DNA of 64,000 nucleotides from Mycobacteriales bacterium (GCA_035995165.1 DASYKU010000027.1:37733-101732); one strand, 5' to 3'. Numbered from the stretch's first letter, positions 3,729 through 33,668 are shown. Numbers and translations are program-made. Notes: generated by a model from the sequence alone, not told the origin.

Positions 3729-4781
3729 ATGCGCGTCGGGATGCCGATCGCCTACGCCGGCGGGTTCACCGAGACGGTCGAGCAGCTCGGCGACTACGAG
3801 AAGGCCGGGCTGGACATCGTGTTCCTGCCCGAGGCGTACTCGTTCGACTCGGTCAGCCAGCTCGGCTACGTGGCCGCGAAGACGACCACGCTGGAGCTCG
3901 GCGCGGACATCCTCAACGTCTACTCGCGGACCCCGGCGCTGCTGGCGATGACCGCGGCCGGGCTGGACTACGTCTCCGGCGGGCGGTTCACCCTCGGGCT
4001 GGGCGCGTCCGGGCCGCAGGTCGTCGAGGGCTTCCACGGGGTGCCGTACACGGCCCCGGTGGGGCGGACCCGCGAGGTGGTCGAGATCTGCCGGCAGGTC
4101 TGGCGCCGGGAGCGGGTGTCGTACGCGGGGAAGCACTTCACCGTCCCGCTGGACGCCGAGCACGGCGGCACCGGCCTGGGCAAGCCGCTGAAGCTCATCA
4201 ACCACCCGGTCCGGGACCGGATCCCGATCACGCTGGCCGCGCTCGGGCCGAAGAACGTCGCGCTGGCCGCGGAGATCGCCGAGGGCTGGGAGCCGGTCTT
4301 CTTCTACCCGGAGCGGGCGCAGGAGACGTTCGGAGAGTCGCTCGCGGCCGGCAAGGCCAGGCGGGACCCGGCGCTCGGGCCGCTGCAGATCGTGGTCGAC
4401 ACCCAGGTCGCGATCACCTCCTCCGCCGAGGAGGAGGCCGCGGCGCTGGCCCGGGTCCGCGACCAGCTCGCCCTCTACGTCGGCGGGATGGGTGCCCGCG
4501 GCCGCAACTTCTACAACGACCTCGCGGTCCGGTACGGGTTCGCCGACGCGGCCGCGACCGTGCAGGGCCTCTACCTGGCCGGGCGCAAGGACGAGGCCGC
4601 CGCGGCGCTGCCGGACGAGCTGGTCCGCGGGGTGACCCTGATCGGCCCTCCGGGGGCGGTCGCGGAGCGTGTCGCGGCGTTCCGGGAGGCGGGCGCGACC
4701 ACCCTGAACGCGAGCCCGCTGGCGTCGACGCACGAGCAACGGGTACGGGACATCGAGCGGCTCGCAGAGCTGAGCCGGTAA
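3729..4781 (+). CDS. LLM-class F420-dependent oxidoreductase, 350 aa
   Basis: Luciferase-like sequence: [56 protein letters not shown]. An RBS-like GGGAG lies upstream of the ATG. Confidence 0.85.
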
Positions 4782-24899: not shown

Positions 24900-26912
24900 A
24901 TGCGACGGAGCACCGGACCGGACGGACGACGGACGAGATGGGTCGCGGGCGCCGCGGCCGCGCTGACGGCCGGCGGGCTCGCGCTCGCGCCGGGCACCGC
25001 GGCGGCCCAGACGACCCCCGCGCCGGTGGTGACCAGGGCCGCGCTCGACCCGGCCCTGGTCGCCGGCCGCGGCGCTGCGGTGCCGTACACGGAGCAGGAG
25101 GCGGAGAACGCGGTCACCACCGGCACCCGCATCGGCCCCGGGCGGGACGCGTACACGCTGCCGGCCGAGGCCTCCGGGCGGACCGCCGTCCGCCTCGCCC
25201 CGGGCCAGTACGTCGAGTTCACGCTGCCCGGCGCCGCGAACGCGATCACGGTCCGGTACAGCATCCCGGACGCGCCCACCGGCGGCGGGATCACCGCCCC
25301 GCTGGCCGTCACCGGCAGCCACGGCCTGCGGACGTCGATGACGCTGACCTCGCAGTACGCCTGGCTCTACAACCAGTTCCCGTTCTCCAACGACCCGAAC
25401 GCGGGGCTGCTGCACCCGGAGCAGTTCATCACCGAGTGCCAGTGCGTGCCGCAGGACACCGTGCCGTTCCCGACGGTCAGCGTCCCGTTCCGGCCCAACC
25501 ACTTCTACGACGAGCAGCGGCTGCTGCTCGGGCGGACGCTGCGGGCCGGGGACACGATCCGGCTGACCGCGAGCGCCGGCGCCGCCTGGACCGTGCTCGA
25601 CCTGCTCGACTCCCAGCTGGTCGGGCTGCCGCACGTCCGGCTGGCCGCGGCCAACGTGCTGCTGTTCGGCGCCGACCCGAGCGGGCGGCGCGACTCCGCG
25701 CCCGCGTTCGACCGGGCGATCGCGTTCGCCCGGGCCCACCACCTGGTCGTCTACCTCCCGCCGGGCACGTTCCAGGTCAACCGGCACATCGTCGTCGACC
25801 ACGTGACCGTCGAGGGCGCCGGCAGCTGGTACACGATCGTCAAGGGCCACGAGATCGCGCTGAGCACGCCGGCCCCGGACGGCTCGGTGCACAGCGGCGT
25901 CGGCTTCTACGGCCGGTCCGCGGCCGAGGGCGGCAGCTCCGACGTACACCTGTCCGGCTTCGCGATCGAGGGCGACGTCCGCGAGCGCATCGACACCGAC
26001 CAGGTCAACGGCGTCGGCGGCGCGCTGAGCGACTCCACCGTGGACGGCCTCTACCTGCACCACACCAAGGTCGGGCTCTGGCTGGACGGGCCGATGACGA
26101 ACCTGCGGGTGACGGACAACGTCATCGCCGACCAGATCGCGGACGGGCTGAACTTCCACACCGGCGTGACCGACTCGCTCGTCGCGAACAATGTCGTCCG
26201 CAACACCGGCGACGACGGGCTGGCGATGTGGTCGGACCGGACCGAGGACGCGCGGGACACGTTCGACCACAACACCGTGCAGACGCCGGTCCTGGCGAAC
26301 GCGATCGCGCTCTACGGCGGCACCGACAACACGATCTCGGCCAACCTCGTCGCCGACCCGATCCGGGAGGGCAGCGGCATCCAGCTCGGGTCCCGGTTCG
26401 GTGCCGAGGCGTTCACCGGGCACGTCTGGGTCACCGACAACACGACCGTCCGGGCCGGGCCGTTCGAGCTGAACTGGAACATCGGCATGGGCGCGATCTG
26501 GATATTCGCGCTGGAGAAGAACATCGACGCCGACATCGAGGTCGTCGGCGACCATTTCCTCGACAACACGTACAACGCGATCATGCTGGTGAGCGATTTC
26601 CCGGTGAAGGACCTCGTCTCGATCACGAACGTGCATTTCCGGGACGTGCAGGTCGACGGGACCGGGACGTCGGTGGTTTCGGCCCGGGTGGCCGGCGGGG
26701 CGTCGTTCGAGAACGTGGACGCCCGCAACGTCGGCGCGGTCGGCATCAACAACTGCGGCTCGTTCCACTTCACCCCGGCCGGGTCCGAATTCACGGTCAC
26801 CGACCTCGGCGGGAACGACGGCGGCTGGCTGGCGCCGTTCGAGCTGCCGAACACGATCACCTGCGACGACCGGCCGCCGGTGGTGCCGCCGCCGCCGCCG
26901 TCCGCGTTCTGA
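24900..26912 (+). CDS. secreted glycoside hydrolase with an N-terminal beta-sandwich and a right-handed beta-helix (GH87-like alpha-1,3-glucanase/mycodextranase candidate), 670 aa
   Basis: ATG at 24900 gives a signal peptide ending APGTAAAQ. A CBM-like block (YTEQEAENA...GQYVEFTLPGAANAITVRYSIPD) is followed by parallel-beta-helix repeats (VTDNVIADQIADGLNFH, VANNVVRNTGDDGLAMW, NTISANLV). The family call is from memory only. Confidence 0.6.
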   Translation: MRRSTGPDGRRTRWVAGAAAALTAGGLALAPGTAAAQTTPAPVVTRAALDPALVAGRGAAVPYTEQEAENAVTTGTRIGPGRDAYTLPAEASGRTAVRLAPGQYVEFTLPGAANAITVRYSIPDAPTGGGITAPLAVTGSHGLRTSMTLTSQYAWLYNQFPFSNDPNAGLLHPEQFITECQCVPQDTVPFPTVSVPFRPNHFYDEQRLLLGRTLRAGDTIRLTASAGAAWTVLDLLDSQLVGLPHVRLAAANVLLFGADPSGRRDSAPAFDRAIAFARAHHLVVYLPPGTFQVNRHIVVDHVTVEGAGSWYTIVKGHEIALSTPAPDGSVHSGVGFYGRSAAEGGSSDVHLSGFAIEGDVRERIDTDQVNGVGGALSDSTVDGLYLHHTKVGLWLDGPMTNLRVTDNVIADQIADGLNFHTGVTDSLVANNVVRNTGDDGLAMWSDRTEDARDTFDHNTVQTPVLANAIALYGGTDNTISANLVADPIREGSGIQLGSRFGAEAFTGHVWVTDNTTVRAGPFELNWNIGMGAIWIFALEKNIDADIEVVGDHFLDNTYNAIMLVSDFPVKDLVSITNVHFRDVQVDGTGTSVVSARVAGGASFENVDARNVGAVGINNCGSFHFTPAGSEFTVTDLGGNDGGWLAPFELPNTITCDDRPPVVPPPPPSAF

Positions 26913-26916
26913 CCCC

Positions 26917-26953
26917 CACCGGCCGCCGTCCCCTCCCGGGCCGGCGGCCGGTG
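26917..26953 (+). terminator. hairpin 5 nt after the glycoside hydrolase stop
   Basis: The 12-bp perfect stem caccggccgccg / cggcggccggtg has a 13-nt loop and is followed by acgtttc. Confidence 0.45.
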
Positions 26954-27033
26954 ACGTTTCGACCGGGGCCGAAGGGTGCCAGGCGGAGCGTCGAAACGAT
27001 GACCACGACGGCGGAGACGTCGATCTCGCCGCG

Positions 27034-27335
27034 GTGGGTGCGCTGGTCGCGGACGAGCGGCGGTGCCGGATCCTGCTCGCGCTCGGCTACGGTCGCGCGC
27101 TTCCGGCCGGGCGGCCGGCCGACGAGGCCGGGGTGAGCGCCGCGACCGCGAGCAGCCACCTGACCGCGGCGTGGACTGGAGCCAGCAGCGCCACCACCTC
27201 TCCGGCGCGCTCGGCCGCGGCCTGCTCGACCGGCTGCCGGAGCTCGGCTGGATCGCCCGCGCCGACGCGACGCGCGCGATCCGGATCACCCCTGGGGGCG
27301 GGACGGCCTGCGCGCTACGTTCGGGCTCGACCTGA
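27034..27335 (+). pseudogene. decayed ArsR-type wHTH regulator (internal deletion plus frameshift)
   Basis: Frame 1 reads LVADERRCRILLALGYGRALPAGRPADEAGVSAATASSHL, an ArsR recognition helix. The conserved C-terminal part (HHLSGALGRGLLDRLPELGWIA...IRITPGG) continues only in another frame (ORF 27063..27335), and the wing/linker between them is missing. Confidence 0.45.
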
Positions 27336-27350
27336 GCTGAGGAGAGTCCC

Positions 27351-27812
27351 GTGACCGAGTCCCGGCCGCCGTTCCCGCCGTTCGACGCCCAGACCGCCGC
27401 GCAGAAGGTGCAGGCGGCCGAGGACGCGTGGAACTCCCGCGATCCGCAGCGGGTGAGCATGGCGTACACCGAGGACTCGGTCTGGCGGAACCGGGACCAG
27501 TTCGTCACCGGGCGGGCGGCGATCGTCGAGTTCCTCGCCGGCAAGTGGGAGCGGGAGCTGGACTACGCGCTGCGCAAGTCCCTCTGGGCGTACACGGACG
27601 ACCGGATCGCGGTGCGTTTCCAGTACGAGTGCCGGGACACGAACGGCCAGTGGTGGCGGTGCTACGGCAACGAGCTGTGGGAGTTCGCGGCGAACGGGCT
27701 GATGCGCCGGCGGGAGGCCAGCATCAACGACCTGGCGATCACCGAGTCGGACCGCCGGATCACCGGACCGCGCCCGGAGGACGAGCGCGGCGTCGACATT
27801 CCGCTGCAGTAG
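27351..27812 (+). CDS. DUF1348-family (NTF2/SnoaL-like) protein, 153 aa
   Basis: [27 protein letters not shown]...[26 protein letters not shown] matches the conserved DUF1348 sequence pattern. Confidence 0.8.
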
Positions 27813-27877
27813 ACCTCACGTTCCGGCCGTCCGCGGCGTCTACCTGGTGACGGACCCGCGAGACGAAGGAGCACCCG

Positions 27878-28369
27878 ATGTCCACCCGGCACACGATCCT
27901 GGCCTCGCCGATCGGCGACCTCACGGTCGTGCGCGACGACGACGGCCTGACCGGGCTCTACTTCCCGCACCACTGGACCCGGCCGGACCGGACCGCGTTC
28001 GGCCCGCCGGTCACCGCCGGCTTCGATGACGTCGCGACCCAGCTGGCGGAGTACCTCGCCGGCGACCGGCGCACGTTCGACCTGCCCCTGCACGCCGACG
28101 GGGACTCGCTCCAGCGCCAGGTCTGGGCGCTGCTGGCCGCGATCCCGTACGGCTCGACCGTGACGTACGGGCACCTCGCCCGGACGCTCGGCTGTTCCGC
28201 GCAGGAGGTCGGCGCCGCGGTCGGCAGCAACCCGCTGTCGATCCTGGTGCCCTGCCACCGCGTGGTCGGCAGCACCGGCAAGCTCACCGGGTACGCCGGC
28301 GGGCTGGACCGCAAGCGGCACCTGCTCGACCTCGAATCGGGTCAGCAGGTCCTGGGAGCGGTGTCCTGA
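27878..28369 (+). CDS. ogt: methylated-DNA--protein-cysteine methyltransferase (copy 1), 163 aa
   Basis: The active site is VPCHRVVGSTGKLTGYAGGLDRKRHLLDLE. GAAGGAG RBS lies upstream. Confidence 0.9.
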   Translation: MSTRHTILASPIGDLTVVRDDDGLTGLYFPHHWTRPDRTAFGPPVTAGFDDVATQLAEYLAGDRRTFDLPLHADGDSLQRQVWALLAAIPYGSTVTYGHLARTLGCSAQEVGAAVGSNPLSILVPCHRVVGSTGKLTGYAGGLDRKRHLLDLESGQQVLGAVS

Positions 28370-28386
28370 AGCCCCCCTTCGAGCGC

Positions 28387-28830
28387 GTGGTCGCCGAGCA
28401 CGGCGCGACGGTCCTGCGGGTCTGCCGCGCGGTGCTCGGCCCGGCCGACGCCGACGACGCCTGGTCCGAGACGTTCCTGGCCGCGCTGAAGGCGTACCCG
28501 GAGCTGCCCGCGGACGCGAACGTCGAGGCCTGGCTCGTGACGATCGCGCACCGCAGGGCCATCGACGTGACCCGGGCGACCGCCCGGCGGGCCGTCCCGG
28601 TGCCGGACCCGCCCGAGACGCCGGCCCCGGACGGGACCGCTGATCTCGACCTCGCCGCCGCGGTGGCCGCCCTGCCGGTCAAGCAGCGGCAGGCCGTCGC
28701 GTACCACTACCTGACCGGACTGCCGTACGCGGAGATCGCGCGGCTGCTGGGCGGCACCGCCGACGCCGCCCGCCGCGCCGCCGCCGACGGCATCCGGACC
28801 CTGAGACGCACCGTAGGAGAGTCACGATGA
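28387..28830 (+). CDS. ECF-type sigma-70 family sigma factor (regions 2 and 4 only), 147 aa
   Basis: Region 2 reads DADDAWSETFLAAL...VEAWLVTIAHRRAIDVTR. Region 4 reads LPVKQRQAVAYHYLTGLPYAEIARLLGGTADAARRAAADGIRTLR. The start is uncertain (GTG at 28387). Confidence 0.75.
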   Translation: MVAEHGATVLRVCRAVLGPADADDAWSETFLAALKAYPELPADANVEAWLVTIAHRRAIDVTRATARRAVPVPDPPETPAPDGTADLDLAAAVAALPVKQRQAVAYHYLTGLPYAEIARLLGGTADAARRAAADGIRTLRRTVGESR

Positions 28831-29420
28831 ACGAGATCGGAGCGGCCTTCCCGGTCGGGGAGTCCGAAGTGGACCGACTGCACGCCCGGCTGGTCGCGGC
28901 CGCGCAGGCGGACGGGGTCCTCGACGTCGCGTACCGGACCGTGGACAGCCCGGTCGGGTCGCTGCTGCTGGCGGCGACCGAGCAGGGGCTGGTCCGGGTC
29001 GCGTTCGCGGGCGAGGACCACGACACGGTCCTGCAGTCGCTGGCCGACCGGATCAGCCCGCGGCTGCTGCGGGCCCCGGGCCGGCTCGACCCGGTCGCCC
29101 GGGAGCTGGAGGACTACTTCGCCGGCCGCCGGCAGGGCTTCGACCTGCCGCTGGACTGGCGGCTGTCCAGCGGCTTCCGGGCCACCGTGCTGCACCACCT
29201 GGCGACCGACGTCGGCTACGGCCGGACCGCGTCGTACCAGGCGCTGGCCGCGCTGGCCGGCAACCCGAAGGCGGTCCGCGCGGTCGGCACCGCCTGCGCG
29301 ACCAACCCGATCCCGGTCGTCGTGCCCTGCCACCGGGTGGTGCGCTCGGACGGCGGCATGGGCAACTACCGCGGCGGCCCCGAGGCCAAGCGGACCCTGC
29401 TCGACCTGGAGGCGGCATGA
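28827..29420 (+). CDS. methylated-DNA--protein-cysteine methyltransferase (copy 2, with a ~35-aa N-terminal extension), 197 aa
   Basis: The ATG overlaps the sigma factor stop (ATGA). The N-terminal MGMT domain is YRTVDSPVGSLLLAATEQGLVRVAF and the active site is VVPCHRVVRSDGGMGNYRGG. Confidence 0.85.
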   Translation: MNEIGAAFPVGESEVDRLHARLVAAAQADGVLDVAYRTVDSPVGSLLLAATEQGLVRVAFAGEDHDTVLQSLADRISPRLLRAPGRLDPVARELEDYFAGRRQGFDLPLDWRLSSGFRATVLHHLATDVGYGRTASYQALAALAGNPKAVRAVGTACATNPIPVVVPCHRVVRSDGGMGNYRGGPEAKRTLLDLEAA

Positions 29421-30124
29421 GCTACGCGGACCGGGTGGCCGCGGCGGACTGGTCCCGCGTCGCCACCGAGCTGGACGACCACGGCAGCGGCCTGATCGGC
29501 CCGCTGCTGGACCCGGCGCAGGCCAAGGAGATCGCCGCGCTCTACGACGACCCGTCCCGGTTCCGGTCCACTGTGGACATGGAGCGGCACCGGTTCGGCC
29601 GCGGGCAGTACCGCTACTTCGCCGAGCCGTTCCCGGACGCGGTGGTCGAGCTCAAGCAGGCGCTCTACCCGCGGCTGCTGCCGATCGCCCGGGACTGGTG
29701 GACCCGGCTCGGCCGGGAGACGCCCTGGCCGGACAGCCTCCAGGAGTGGCTGGAGCGGTGCCACGCCGCCGGGCAGACCAAGTCCACCCCGATCCTGCTG
29801 CGCTACGGCCAGGGCGACTGGAATGCGCTGCACCGCGATCTCTACGGCGAGCTCGTCTTCCCGCTGCAGGTGGTGATCAACCTCAACGACCCGGGCGTCG
29901 ACCACACCGGCGGCGAGTTCCTGCTCTACGAGCAGCGGCCGCGGGCGCAGTCGCGGGGCACCGCGACGCTCATCCCGTACGGGCACGGGCTGGTCTTCAC
30001 CACCCGGGACCGGCCGGTCCGCGGCGCCCGGGGCTGGTCGGCCGCCCCCGTCCGGCACGGCGTCTCGGTGATCCGGTCCGGACAGCGGTTCACCCTCGCC
30101 CTCGTCTTCCACGACGCGGCATGA
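29417..30124 (+). CDS. 2OG-Fe(II) oxygenase of the predicted nucleic-acid demethylase type (PF09859-like), 235 aa
   Basis: ATGA overlap with the upstream gene. LLRYGQGDWNALHRDLYGELVFPLQVVINL...GGEFLL...VRHGVS carries the HxD...H facial-triad pattern. Confidence 0.7.
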   Translation: MSYADRVAAADWSRVATELDDHGSGLIGPLLDPAQAKEIAALYDDPSRFRSTVDMERHRFGRGQYRYFAEPFPDAVVELKQALYPRLLPIARDWWTRLGRETPWPDSLQEWLERCHAAGQTKSTPILLRYGQGDWNALHRDLYGELVFPLQVVINLNDPGVDHTGGEFLLYEQRPRAQSRGTATLIPYGHGLVFTTRDRPVRGARGWSAAPVRHGVSVIRSGQRFTLALVFHDAA

Positions 30125-30363
30125 GCTGGACCCTGCTCGGCCCGGCCGGGCCGTACGAGAGCGCCGTGCCGGGCACGCTCGGCGGGCACCGTCGCAACAA
30201 GCTCTACGGTCGGCTCGACTGTCCCGGCGCGCTGCGCTGGATCGCCAAGGGGCACTACGTGCAGCACCGGGTGTTCTTCGCCGACGAGGCCACCGCGGTC
30301 GCGACCGGCTTCCGGCCCTGCGCGAACTGCCTGCCGGCGGAGTACCGGAGGTGGAAGGGATGA
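30121..30363 (+). CDS. stand-alone Ada N-terminal-like metal-binding domain protein, 80 aa
   Basis: ATGA overlap with the upstream gene. ...LDCPGA...ATGFRPCANCLP resembles the GFRPCxxC half of the Ada Zn site. Only three Cys are present. Confidence 0.55.
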   Translation: MSWTLLGPAGPYESAVPGTLGGHRRNKLYGRLDCPGALRWIAKGHYVQHRVFFADEATAVATGFRPCANCLPAEYRRWKG

Positions 30364-31031
30364 CGTTGTTCGAGCGGCCGAAGGCCGAGATCGCTCCGGG
30401 CGCCGTGCACCTGCCGGGCCGGCTGGACCTCGCCGGGCGACGCCGGCTGGTCGAGGCCTACGCGCAGTGGACGGCCGGCCCGGTCCCGGCGCACGCGGCC
30501 GTGCTGCCCGGTGGCCACCCGATGTCCGTCCGGATGGTGTGCCTGGGCTGGCACTGGTCGCCCTACCGGTACACCCGCACGGCCGACGACGTGAACGGCG
30601 CCCGCGTGCTCGACTTCCCCGACTGGCTCGGCGACCTCGGCCGCCGGGTCCTCGCCGACGCGTACGACGAGGACGCCGCGGCCGCGTACCGGCCGGACAC
30701 CGCCCTGGTCAACTGGTACCACCCGAGCGCGCGGATGGGCATGCACCAGGACAAGGACGAGGTCACCGACGCCCCGGTGGTCTCGCTGTCGATCGGCGCG
30801 AGCTGTGTCTTCCGGTTCGGGAATCCCGGGACCCGCGGGAAGCCGTACACGGACGTGACGCTGGCGTCCGGGGACGCGGTGGTGTTCGGCCGGGAGAGCC
30901 GGTTCGCGTACCACGGGGTGCCGCGGATCCTGCCCGGTACGGCCGACCCGGACGCGGGACTGCCGGCGGGACGGATCAACATCACGCTGCGGAGCACCGG
31001 GTTGACCGACAATGGCGGGCATGCGGACTGA
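30360..31031 (+). CDS. alkB: alpha-ketoglutarate-dependent dioxygenase AlkB, 223 aa
   Basis: ATGA overlap with the upstream gene. NWYHPSARMGMHQDKDE (HxD), SLSIGASCVFRFG, RFAYHGVPRI and RINITLR are AlkB motifs. Confidence 0.85.
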   Translation: MTLFERPKAEIAPGAVHLPGRLDLAGRRRLVEAYAQWTAGPVPAHAAVLPGGHPMSVRMVCLGWHWSPYRYTRTADDVNGARVLDFPDWLGDLGRRVLADAYDEDAAAAYRPDTALVNWYHPSARMGMHQDKDEVTDAPVVSLSIGASCVFRFGNPGTRGKPYTDVTLASGDAVVFGRESRFAYHGVPRILPGTADPDAGLPAGRINITLRSTGLTDNGGHAD

Positions 31032-32175
31032 GGTCGCGATCGTCGGAGCCGGGCCGGCCGGCCTGCTGCTGTCCCACCTGCTGGCCCAGGACGGCGTCGA
31101 GTCGGTCGTGGTCGAGGCCCGCTCCCGGGAGTACGTCGAGGCCCGCATCCGGGCCGGCATCCTGGAGCACTCGACCGTCCAGTTGCTCGATCGGGCCGGC
31201 CTCGGCGACCGGCTCAGAACAGAGGGCGTCCAGCACCGCGGGATCTACCTGCAGTGGCCGGGCGAGCGGCACCACTTCGACTTCCTCGACCTGGTCGGGC
31301 GCAGCGTCTGGGTCTACGGGCAGACCGAGGTGCAGAAGGATCTCGGCCGGGCCCGGGAGGCGGCCGGCCAGCAGATCGTCTACGAGGCCGCGGATGTCGC
31401 CGTGCACGATGTCACCGACCGTCCACACGTGACGTTCACCGTGGACGGACGGCCGCAGCGGCTGGACGCCGAGGTGGTGGTCGGCTGCGACGGGTCGTTC
31501 GGTCCGAGCCGGGCCGCGATCCCGGCGGCCGAGGTGCAGGGCTGGGCCCGGACGTACCCGTACTCGTGGCTGGGGATTCTGGCCGACGCCGCCCCCTCCA
31601 CCGACGAGCTGATCTACGCCTGGCACCCGAACGGCTTCGCGTTGCACTCCATGCGCTCGGCCACGGTCAGCCGGCTCTACCTCCAGGTCCCCAACGGCAC
31701 CGATGTGGCCGACTGGTCCGACGACCGGATCTGGGCCGAGCTGGCCACCCGGATCGGGCCGGAGCGGGTGCCCGGCCCGATCACCGACAAGAGCGTGCTG
31801 CCGATGCGCAGCGCGGTGCAGGCGCCGATGTCGTACGGGAAGCTGTTCCTGGCCGGGGACGCCGCCCACATCGTGCCGCCGACCGGGGCCAAGGGCCTCA
31901 ACCTCGCCGTCGCCGACGTGGCCCTGCTGGCCCCGGCCCTGCTCGCGCTGCTGCGGGAGAAGGACCCCCGGCTGGCGGAGTCCTATTCGGACACCGCACT
32001 GCGCCGGGTCTGGCGCTGCACCCACTTCTCCTGGTGGATGACGACGATGCTGCACACCGGCGAGGACCCGTTCGACCAGCAGCTGCAGCTGTCCCAGCTG
32101 CGCTGGGTCGCCGGCAGCGCGGCCGGCGCGACCGGGCTGGCGGAGAACTACGCCGGGCTGCCCATCGGCTACTGA
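31021..32175 (+). CDS. pobA: 4-hydroxybenzoate 3-monooxygenase
   Basis: MRTEVAIVGAGPAGLLLSHLL is followed by a PobA-like sequence throughout (FLAGDAAHIVPPTGAKGLNLAVADV). An alternative ATG lies at 31012. Confidence 0.9.
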   Translation: MRTEVAIVGAGPAGLLLSHLLAQDGVESVVVEARSREYVEARIRAGILEHSTVQLLDRAGLGDRLRTEGVQHRGIYLQWPGERHHFDFLDLVGRSVWVYGQTEVQKDLGRAREAAGQQIVYEAADVAVHDVTDRPHVTFTVDGRPQRLDAEVVVGCDGSFGPSRAAIPAAEVQGWARTYPYSWLGILADAAPSTDELIYAWHPNGFALHSMRSATVSRLYLQVPNGTDVADWSDDRIWAELATRIGPERVPGPITDKSVLPMRSAVQAPMSYGKLFLAGDAAHIVPPTGAKGLNLAVADVALLAPALLALLREKDPRLAESYSDTALRRVWRCTHFSWWMTTMLHTGEDPFDQQLQLSQLRWVAGSAAGATGLAENYAGLPIGY

Positions 32176-33425
32176 GCTGCGTTCACCGCGCTGGTGACGT
32201 TCGCCAGCGTCGGCTGGGCGACGGCCTTGCCGTTCACCAGGACGGTCGGGGTGCCGGTCACGCCGTCCTTGGACGACTGGTCGGTCGCCTTGGCCACGTA
32301 GTCCGCGTACGTCCCGGCGCGGATCTGGGCCTCGACCGAGCCCGCCCCGGCCTGCTGGGCCAGCTGCACCAGGGTGTCCTCGGTCAGCCCGGCCGAGCCC
32401 TCCGCCGGCTGCTGCTGGTAGAGCAGCGCGTGGTACTTGGCGAACACGTCGGCGCTGACCCCGGCCGAGGCGTAGAGCGCGTTCGCGGCCCGGCTGGAGT
32501 ACTTCGTGGTCGAGGACGAGTCCAGGAACGAGATCACGTGGTAGTGGACCTTGACCGTGCCGTTCGCGATCCAGGTCGAGATCGCCGAGCCGACCTGGGA
32601 CTCGAACTGGGCGCAGACCGGGCACTGCGGGTCCTCGTACAGGTCGAGGGTGACGGGGGCGGTGGCCTGTCCGACGGTCACGCCGTCGGCCAGCGAGGCG
32701 CCGGCCGGGGTCGGCCCGGTCGGCGGCGGGATCCGGGAGGCCTGGACCCCGATGCCGGCCCCGACGAGCGCGACCAGCGCGATCCCGGCCACCCCCGAGG
32801 TCAGCGCGACCCGGCGGTCGCCGGCCCGGCGGCGCTTCTCGGCCAGCTCGGCCAGCCGGCGCCGGCCCTCGGCCGTCCGCCGCGGACCCGTGATCGCCGG
32901 CTCCGGCCCGGCCGTCCGGATCGCGCCGTCGACCGCCCACCGGGTCCGGTACGCCCAGACCAGGAACGCCGAGACCACCAGCAGGCCGGCGTCCCGCAGG
33001 ATCTCCCCGGTGTACGCGGTCGACTGGCCCGCGCCGAGCTGCCCGCCGCCGCCGAAGCAGCCGCACTCGATCTGCAGCCCGCGGACGGCGGCGGAGATGA
33101 TCCCGGTCAGGAACACCACGAACAGCGCCGCGGACACGATCGCGGCCACCCGGGTCGCGAGCCCGGCCAGCAGCAGCACGGCCAGCCCGATCTCCAGGAA
33201 CGGCAGGCCGTAGCCGACGCCCTGGGCCAGCCACTCCGGCAGGATCTGGTACGCCCGCACGGCCCGGACGGAGGCCGCCGGGTCACCCGTCTTCGACACC
33301 GCCGCGTAGGCCCAGACGGCCGCGAGCAGCAGCCGGGCCGCGGTGCCGACCCAGGGCAGGATCCGGCGCGGCGGCGGCGACTCGACGGTCGGCGCGGACG
33401 CACGAGTGGCGGTGGCAGCGGGCAT
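32169..33425 (-). CDS. MauE/DoxX-type membrane protein fused to a DsbA-like thioredoxin domain, 418 aa
   Basis: ATG at 33423-33425. The N-terminal four TM helices carry IECGCFGGGG. After a linker and one further TM helix comes DLYEDPQCPVCAQFE (CxxC) with the DsbA-type ...GVTGTPTVLVNG. Confidence 0.75.
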   Translation of the reverse strand: MPAATATRASAPTVESPPPRRILPWVGTAARLLLAAVWAYAAVSKTGDPAASVRAVRAYQILPEWLAQGVGYGLPFLEIGLAVLLLAGLATRVAAIVSAALFVVFLTGIISAAVRGLQIECGCFGGGGQLGAGQSTAYTGEILRDAGLLVVSAFLVWAYRTRWAVDGAIRTAGPEPAITGPRRTAEGRRRLAELAEKRRRAGDRRVALTSGVAGIALVALVGAGIGVQASRIPPPTGPTPAGASLADGVTVGQATAPVTLDLYEDPQCPVCAQFESQVGSAISTWIANGTVKVHYHVISFLDSSSTTKYSSRAANALYASAGVSADVFAKYHALLYQQQPAEGSAGLTEDTLVQLAQQAGAGSVEAQIRAGTYADYVAKATDQSSKDGVTGTPTVLVNGKAVAQPTLANVTSAVNAAQ

Positions 33426-33668
33426 GACGGAACTCCCCCGGACGGGCACGTGGACGCTCGTGGGACGGGCGCCCGCGGACCCAGGATCCGCCCGCCGCCT
33501 GTGCACCAGTTATGAGCCCTGTCGCTAATCCCTACTGGTTTGGTAGAGTTCTGGCGTGCCGAGTTCGGAACTGTGGCGGGACCGCGCCCTCGACCTCCTG
33601 CGGGTCGTGGCGGCCGCGTGTCCGGGGGCCTGACCCCGCCCCGCCCACCTCTGGCCCTCGGAGTTCCC

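Follow-up and report, generated by a model that had tools for sequence, protein, structure and literature searches.

How is an alkylation-repair operon switched on when its sole transcription factor is a sigma factor? This question is raised by a six-gene operon in a stretch of 64,000 nucleotides (nt) from a Mycobacteriales bacterium (GCA_035995165.1, DASYKU010000027.1:37733-101732; hereafter the window), a high-GC region with a G+C fraction of ~0.70-0.76. Two genes for O6-methylguanine-DNA methyltransferases (MGMTs), ogt1 and ogt2, flank a gene for a small extracytoplasmic function (ECF) sigma factor; next come genes for a PF09859-type 2-oxoglutarate (2OG)-Fe(II) oxygenase, an Ada-like metal-binding protein and AlkB. 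To our knowledge, many Actinomycetota do not possess an E. coli-type Ada regulator, and the induction of alkylation repair in these organisms is poorly understood. We propose that the operon is part of an autoregulated alkylation-damage regulon run by the ECF sigma factor, and that the product of ogt2 (Ogt2) is its alkylation-sensing anti-sigma factor, a reading for which we consider the prospects evenly balanced.

Conservation of the sigma-Ogt2 pair

An initial annotation of the window had listed the six genes with their domains, and had pointed out that no AraC domain is encoded among them. Translation of the open reading frames (ORFs) and profile searches reproduced all six genes and domain calls, and no AraC or HTH_18 match was found in any operon protein. 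In the sigma factor, profile searches detected Sigma70_r2 at residues 1-67 and Sigma70_r4_2 at residues 88-133. The protein scored 53.8 bits against TIGR02937, the ECF superfamily (cut-off 42.9), and its sequence matches in the PDB were ECF sigma factors exclusively. It is small and consists of sigma2 and sigma4, without sigma1.1 or sigma3, as is characteristic of ECF (group 4) sigma factors. A protein 100% identical to it is encoded in a Mycobacteriales metagenome-assembled genome (MAG).

A scan based on the sigma factor, with one genome taken per species, gave 80 loci, 78 of which harboured an intact sigma-ogt2 pair that could be evaluated. Among the 80 are loci from Streptomyces, Mycobacterium, Mycolicibacterium, Cellulomonas, Arthrobacter, Microbacterium, Amycolatopsis, Tsukamurella and Acidimicrobiales and, besides these Actinomycetota, from one Thermomicrobiales MAG. 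An Ogt2-type MGMT gene was present directly 3' of the sigma gene and on the same strand in 78/78 genome loci. The converse scan with Ogt2 was carried out on metagenome contigs, and in all 66 contig loci with enough upstream DNA the sigma gene was situated directly 5' of ogt2, bringing the total to 144 loci. Adjacency of sigma and MGMT genes across Actinomycetota, which the initial annotation had set as a check on its proposal, is thus conserved. The junction between the two genes in the 78 genome loci is a 4-nt overlap in 62 cases, an overlap of 8 or 14 nt in 12, and a small gap in the remaining 4. By comparison, the other genes (ogt1, PF09859, alkB and the Ada-like gene) may be absent, and where they occur their place and direction differ from locus to locus; no other candidate regulator was conserved near the pair in the loci compared. 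That the overlapping sigma-Ogt2 pair is invariant while the other genes vary argues for a link that exceeds mere co-regulation.

The primary structure of Ogt2 was then considered. Its active-site residue is Cys168 (codon 29328-29330), and it retains the arginine finger, Tyr and Asn; PCHRV, the arginine finger and the equivalents of Tyr114, Asn137 and Glu172 are invariant in 79/79 sequences. With every catalytic and DNA-binding residue kept, Ogt2 looks like a working alkyltransferase. The longer N terminus ascribed to this protein in the initial annotation was also found, extending ~32-34 residues beyond E. coli Ogt, human MGMT and the Ogt from Mycobacterium tuberculosis (Mtb). This extension is specific to the MGMT clade in question and displays the motif L-x-R-L-H-x-R-L...A....L-L-D-V-A-Y-R, conserved across 79 orthologues. 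The N-terminal ~32 residues are unmatched in solved MGMT structures, with which alignments begin at residue 32-35. In the AlphaFold2 fusion model described below, the extension is predicted to form a single main helix of ~17 residues with a predicted local distance difference test (pLDDT) score of ~96.

A rival explanation is co-regulation only, which we regard as unlikely, although it deserves serious attention. The sigma factor would drive the regulon but would itself be controlled otherwise, for example transcriptionally or by an unlinked factor, Ogt2 would be the first regulon gene, and the Ogt2 helix would serve repair, for example in dimerisation or DNA handling. This operon, like high-GC genomes at large, has many ATGA overlaps, and every residue necessary for repair is kept in Ogt2. 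Moreover, transcriptional control without any anti-sigma factor is found in several ECF groups (PMC8999054). Co-regulation, however, does not explain why ogt1, PF09859 and alkB are free to move whereas Ogt2 alone stays fixed 3' of the sigma gene, at a junction whose overlap is conserved, nor does it explain the high predicted template modelling score (pTM) of the fusion model.

Concerning the first junction of the operon, the initial annotation gave a gap of 17 nt, which is literally correct when the sigma gene is read from GTG 28387. On the other hand, the sequence K-x-P-F-E-x-V-V is the conserved N terminus of the sigma factor in every related locus, and its version in the window, L-K-P-P-F-E-R-V-V, is encoded in frame 5' of this GTG. 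The sole candidate in-frame start in that region, CTG 28366, shares the sequence CTGA with the ogt1 stop codon. The closest relatives of the window, L085 and L086, have this CTGA junction too, which suggests that the non-canonical CTG start is used by termination-reinitiation. Judging from the sequence, the sigma factor may therefore start at CTG 28366, which would add a fifth 4-nt overlap to the four ATGA overlaps previously annotated at 28827, 29417, 30121 and 30360, all of which could be read straight from the DNA.

The promoter motif and the genes it precedes

A candidate ECF-type promoter is found in front of the operon, with CTCAC as the -35 element (27815-27819), a spacer of 17 nt and CGTCTAC as the -10 element (27837-27843). 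It ends 34 nt 5' of the ogt1 ATG. The pattern CTCAC-N16-18-CGTCT has a single exact match in the window, where 0.61 matches are expected by chance. The lone match is therefore not significant in itself, and its significance derives from its position and from its conservation across loci. The same pattern was present 5' of the first gene of the cluster in 77/79 loci. When 2.4 Mb of sequence over all loci was examined on both strands, 170 copies were found with a spacer of 17 nt, and 3, 5 and 2 copies with spacers of 16, 18 and 19 nt, respectively. The extended consensus reads A-(C/T)-CTCAC-(G/A)-T-T ... (G/A)-CGTCT-(A/T)-C. Motif copies are located 5' of the sigma gene (53 copies), ogt1 (41 copies, including those of divergent ogt1-PF09859 units) and the PF09859 gene (4 copies), and a few lie 5' of other genes such as those for SnoaL-like proteins. 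A relaxed search of the window for further promoter copies yielded nothing beyond chance, and a scan of 26800-33600 for generic sigma-70 promoters and terminators found none. Taking into account that ECF sigma factors are usually autoregulated, we infer that the motif is the sigma factor's own promoter.

In loci where the sigma gene comes first (for example L059 at 4022-4080, L072 and L080), only ~8-15 nt separate the end of CGTCTAC from the start codon, and a Shine-Dalgarno sequence is missing, pointing to leaderless or near-leaderless sigma mRNAs. The window differs in having a leader of ~27-34 nt with the sequence GAAGGAG. In L012, L016 and L031 the motif also precedes a gene on the minus strand that adjoins the sigma gene. 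Its product contains LPNAWDVPSALAYLADGF and presumably resembles PEP-mutase/isocitrate-lyase-like proteins, and the regulon of certain mycobacterial lineages may include this gene as an additional member. In L001 and L007 the sigma gene is adjoined by a SnoaL-like gene with a copy of the motif 5' of it. For L084 the adjacency of a SnoaL-like gene alone was recorded, and DUF1348 genes are found downstream in L008 and L020.

Among the genes that accompany the pair, ogt1 was found in 45/78 genome loci, upstream on the same strand in 30 and divergent in 11. The active site of its product is Cys126 (PCHRV), and PCHRV, Tyr, Asn and Glu are invariant in the family. The arginine-finger position is occupied by Gln109 (codon 28202-28204), and across 47 orthologues this column holds Q (20), R (14), Y (7), H (4) or K (2). 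Such variation may reflect altered base flipping or a different substrate. The PF09859 oxygenase matched its profile with 262.4 bits (cut-off 26.2) over positions 1-172 of 172. Its gene is present in 29/78 genome loci, sometimes as a separate unit, and in L059, L080 and L081 a promoter-motif copy of its own stands in front of it. The function of the PF09859 family is a prediction only. AlkB scored 151 bits against PF13532, and MHQD (H-x-D) and YHG (H), for the iron triad, and RINITLR (R-x5-R), for 2OG binding, are readable in the translation. As its score against NCBIfam NF011930, 114 bits, is under the equivalog cut-off of 267, we refer to it as an AlkB-family protein, not a proven equivalog. 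The alkB gene was found in 6/78 genome loci. In the closest metagenomic relatives (L085, L086, L112 and L142), a PobA-like gene overlaps alkB on its 3' side. The PobA-family protein of the window scored 541 bits against NF006091 (cut-off 351), and the terminator scan found no terminator-like site between its gene and alkB. The PobA-like gene may thus be a seventh cistron.

The remaining gene encodes the 80-residue Ada-like protein, which the initial annotation had offered as the alternative alkyl sensor controlling the sigma factor. The three Cys residues noted there (C34, C67 and C70) are indeed present, and are invariant in 17 orthologues, in a GRLDC motif and in PCxxC. The protein scored above the Pfam threshold for Ada_Zn_binding (PF02805; 24.6 bits, cut-off 23), with a match over profile positions 20-64 of 65 that mainly covers the PCxxC half. 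Matches to N-Ada structures in the PDB reached E=0.011 at best, over residues 46-74. In a number of clusters the gene is again found 3' of PF09859 or ogt2, which would be in accordance with a role as sensor. The zinc motifs of Ada have been defined as CRPSC and PCKRC (PMC10779285). In all 17 orthologues PCxxC is kept but the CRPSC counterpart reads DCPGA, so that three of the four Zn-binding Cys residues of Ada are found, and the acceptor Cys38 may or may not be among them. Furthermore, the gene occurs in 4/78 genome loci and about a quarter of the metagenome loci, there usually after PF09859, and is absent from L085 and L086, the closest relatives. With this sparse distribution and the missing CRPSC Cys, the Ada-like protein cannot be a general sensor, and we consider control of the sigma factor by this protein very improbable. 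It would be an occasional accessory, at most a local modulator or an accessory of phosphotriester repair. In five Mycobacterium-like loci (L017, L033, L042, L047 and L055), a protein of 180-199 residues is encoded ~200 nt 3' of ogt2. It shares with the Ada-like protein only the half-motif FFLDEA..AAGHRPCAECRR, and was also seen in L130, L134 and L138.

A predicted sigma-Ogt2 complex and a proposed switch

A concatenated sigma and Ogt2 query retrieved about 15 natural single-chain sigma-MGMT proteins. One of them, P0121, a clean fusion 65% identical to the pair in the window, was modelled with AlphaFold2 using a diverse alignment. The model had a mean pLDDT of 88.9 and a pTM of 0.82, and low confidence was confined to two linkers. 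As the pTM reached this value despite ~60 disordered linker residues, or ~15% of the chain, the arrangement of sigma2, sigma4 and the two MGMT domains with respect to one another is predicted with confidence. An earlier model of P0121, made from a shallow alignment of close relatives (A1), had a pLDDT of 54, a pTM of 0.27 and an unfolded MGMT domain, and was discarded. Foldseek comparison of the MGMT part with Mtb OGT gave a template modelling (TM) score of 0.88. The sigma part matched over its whole length the ECF sigma factors of crystallised complexes with an anti-sigma factor (SigW/RsiW, TM 0.71; EcfG/NepR, 0.72; CnrH/CnrY, 0.68), whereas it did not superpose on holoenzyme-bound SigE (TM 0.40, root-mean-square deviation 21.8 Å). 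No sigma-MGMT complex was present among the PDB matches. Covariation between the two proteins was calculated for 132 sigma/Ogt2 pairs (mutual information with average product correction). The top pairs involved the variable linker and residues at the very N terminus, and the signal was set aside because it reflects phylogeny and indels.

The pairing, the coupling and the AlphaFold2 evidence also apply to a positive partner. Alkylated Ogt2 could activate or stabilise the sigma factor, or the sigma factor could tether Ogt2 to RNA polymerase for transcription-linked repair. There is a precedent in E. coli Ada, which methyl transfer turns on, not off (PMC10779285). On the contrary, the modelled sigma factor is closed, as in ECF sigma factors bound to anti-sigma factors, and does not adopt the extended form of the holoenzyme. 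In addition, alkylated alkyltransferases are generally destabilised, which suits the loss of a partner better than the gain of one. We therefore regard a positive role as decidedly improbable.

Our proposal of an anti-sigma function can be described as a switch. When the switch is off, the overlapping stop and start codons would lead to the production of sigma factor and Ogt2 in roughly equal amounts. Unalkylated Ogt2 would bind the sigma factor, in all likelihood by means of the additional N-terminal helix together with the N-domain, and would hold it in a closed form unable to bind RNA polymerase. Repair of O6-alkylguanine would provide the signal, placing the alkyl group irreversibly on Cys168. 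Alkyl transfer is known to destabilise alkyltransferases and to disrupt contacts between their N- and C-domains (PMC10779285 section 3.3; PMC4605297), which makes a release step plausible. Alkylated Ogt2 would be destabilised and its N/C-domain contact loosened, freeing the sigma factor, or Ogt2 would be marked for degradation, and one sigma molecule would be released per repaired lesion. The freed sigma factor would then transcribe from CTCAC-N17-CGTCTAC promoters, raising the output of ogt1, of the sigma/ogt2 pair and of the genes for the PF09859 oxygenase, Ada-like protein and AlkB, and perhaps of that for the PobA-like enzyme, with ogt1, PF09859 and AlkB as the effectors. Once the lesions are cleared, fresh unalkylated Ogt2 would recapture the sigma factor.

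Ogt2 would accordingly represent a 'suicide' anti-sigma factor, an active alkyltransferase whose own irreversible alkylation frees its ECF sigma factor. It would constitute a structurally new class, and the system a second, independently evolved adaptive response, widespread in Actinomycetota. We hold this fuller version tentatively, as plausible but slightly short of probable. The suggestion in the initial annotation that an alkyl-acceptor protein controls the sigma factor in the manner of an anti-sigma factor is thus retained for Ogt2, in view of the invariant pair, the overlap, the helix, the promoter and the fusion model. It is abandoned for the Ada-like protein, with its three Cys residues and its presence in 4/78 loci.

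Several points weigh against an anti-sigma function. Sigma-Ogt2 binding, induction with alkylation-driven release, and use of the promoter are all inferred. Pfam detected two MGMT domains in Ogt2 and no anti-sigma domain in this or any other operon protein. Class I anti-sigma factors are recognised by a four-helix anti-sigma domain or zf-HC2, often with an HxxxCxxC zinc site, and Ogt2 has no such domain, so that it may act like an anti-sigma factor yet is not a member of the class I family. A closed shape is frequently given to ECF sigma factors by AlphaFold2 when no partner is present as well. The P0121 model was judged from its pLDDT, pTM and fold matches. The sigma-MGMT fusions are all singletons, several are frameshifted, and the two that were traced come from MAG assemblies with 'contig_N' names. 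We have treated the fusions as possible indel artefacts, and on account of their origin and frameshift signatures they are weak as Rosetta-stone evidence. ATGA overlaps, for their part, are a general feature of high-GC operons. Finally, it is unclear how sigma-bound Ogt2 would find lesions, should its sigma- and DNA-binding surfaces overlap.

The mechanism is an attractive and directly testable hypothesis. If Ogt2 is an anti-sigma factor, the transcription machinery would read a DNA-repair enzyme directly as a damage meter. The mechanism of the orphan group ECF122, discussed below, would be settled, and the anti-sigma repertoire would gain a new fold. A uniform regulon would be defined, including the uncharacterised PF09859 oxygenase, and actinobacterial engineering would obtain a compact damage-responsive switch with a known promoter.

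Gene neighbourhood and relation to known systems

The features of the operon are listed in Table 1. Directly 5' of the promoter is a DUF1348/SnoaL-like gene (27351-27812), an adjacency repeated in L085 and L086. Further upstream (27034-27354), two overlapping ORFs resemble the halves of an ArsR-type helix-turn-helix regulator, with a weak HTH_20 match of 19 bits, and look like a frameshift-split gene, either a pseudogene or an assembly error. Beyond the PobA-like gene, the minus strand (32169-33506) encodes a protein of 445 residues in which a MauE/DoxX membrane domain is fused to a DsbA-like thioredoxin domain, and which is unrelated to the operon.

Table 1. Positions of the genes and predicted sites of the alkylation-repair operon in the window
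Feature	Position	Strand	Description
Predicted ECF-type promoter	27815-27843	+	CTCAC-N17-CGTCTAC
Shine-Dalgarno-like GAAGGAG	27865-27871	+	6 nt 5' of ogt1 ATG; read from sequence
ogt1	27878-28369	+	163 aa; PF02870 + PF01035
ECF sigma factor	28387-28830 (GTG) or 28366-28830 (CTG)	+	147 aa (GTG) or 154 aa (CTG); Sigma70_r2 + r4_2
ogt2	28827-29420	+	197 aa; PF02870 + PF01035
Ogt2 N-terminal extension, ~residues 1-33	28827-28925	+	conserved helix motif
PF09859 (Oxygenase-NA) 2OG-Fe(II) oxygenase	29417-30124	+	235 aa
Ada_Zn_binding-like protein	30121-30363	+	80 aa; PF02805, marginal partial match
AlkB	30360-31031	+	223 aa from ATG 30360, or 226 aa from GTG 30351; PF13532
PobA-family FAD monooxygenase	31021 or 31012 to 32175	+	NF006091; start overlaps alkB stop

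The association of an ECF sigma factor with an MGMT is not new, as it has already been catalogued as ECF122. In a review of 2022 (PMC8999054), with reference to Casas-Pastor et al. 2021, 6-O-methylguanine DNA methyltransferases appear among the conserved neighbours that could regulate ECF sigma factors devoid of anti-sigma factors; they are given for ECF122, by an unknown mechanism, with a model protein from Cellulomonas. The system in the window likewise pairs an actinobacterial ECF sigma factor, for which no anti-sigma factor can be recognised, with a conserved MGMT neighbour. Cellulomonas orthologues of the sigma factor are 71-74% identical to it and share the same MGMT pairing, so that, by neighbourhood and orthologues, it very likely belongs to ECF122. 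The members listed for the Cellulomonas cluster did not include the accession of the model protein, WP_057211282.1. While the ECF122 literature consulted gives the association alone, the present analysis adds a promoter motif, a regulon, the N-terminal helix, overlap statistics and a predicted complex. The initial annotation knew of no experimental demonstration of such control, and none was found in the literature searched. A 2023 review of the alkyltransferase family (PMC10779285) does not mention sigma factors, which suggests that the link is unfamiliar to the DNA-repair field, although it has been catalogued by ECF specialists.

As in the responses governed by E. coli Ada and by B. subtilis AdaA/AdaB, an inducible regulon containing an alkyltransferase and AlkB is proposed here, with irreversible Cys alkylation as the signal. 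Unlike Ada, the operon encodes no AraC helix-turn-helix, and its Ada-like domain is a separate, optional protein with three Cys residues. The proposed signal would be O6-alkylguanine repair by a C-terminal-type alkyltransferase instead of phosphotriester repair at Zn(Cys)4, and the output would be sigma release instead of gained DNA binding.

RsrA-SigR and RshA-SigH are pairs in which a soluble, Cys-sensing anti-sigma factor controls an ECF sigma factor. Both pairs can be found in Table 1 of PMC8999054. They resemble the sigma-Ogt2 pair in that a cytoplasmic partner is encoded directly 3' of an autoregulated ECF gene and that modification of its Cys would free the sigma factor. Ogt2, however, is built on the MGMT fold, where these anti-sigma factors have a four-helix domain and an HxxxCxxC zinc site, and the modification of its Cys would be irreversible, an enzymatic transfer from damaged DNA. 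With canonical MGMT/Ogt proteins (Mtb OGT, 4BHB/4WXC; E. coli Ada-C, 1SFE; human AGT, 1EH6), Ogt2 shares the two-domain fold and the catalytic and DNA-binding residues, and it is distinguished from them by its extra conserved N-terminal helix of ~32 residues and its obligate genetic link to a sigma factor. The system thus resembles both Cys-sensing sigma/anti-sigma pairs and Ada, but belongs to neither family, as it lacks an anti-sigma domain, an AraC domain and a Zn(Cys)4 site.

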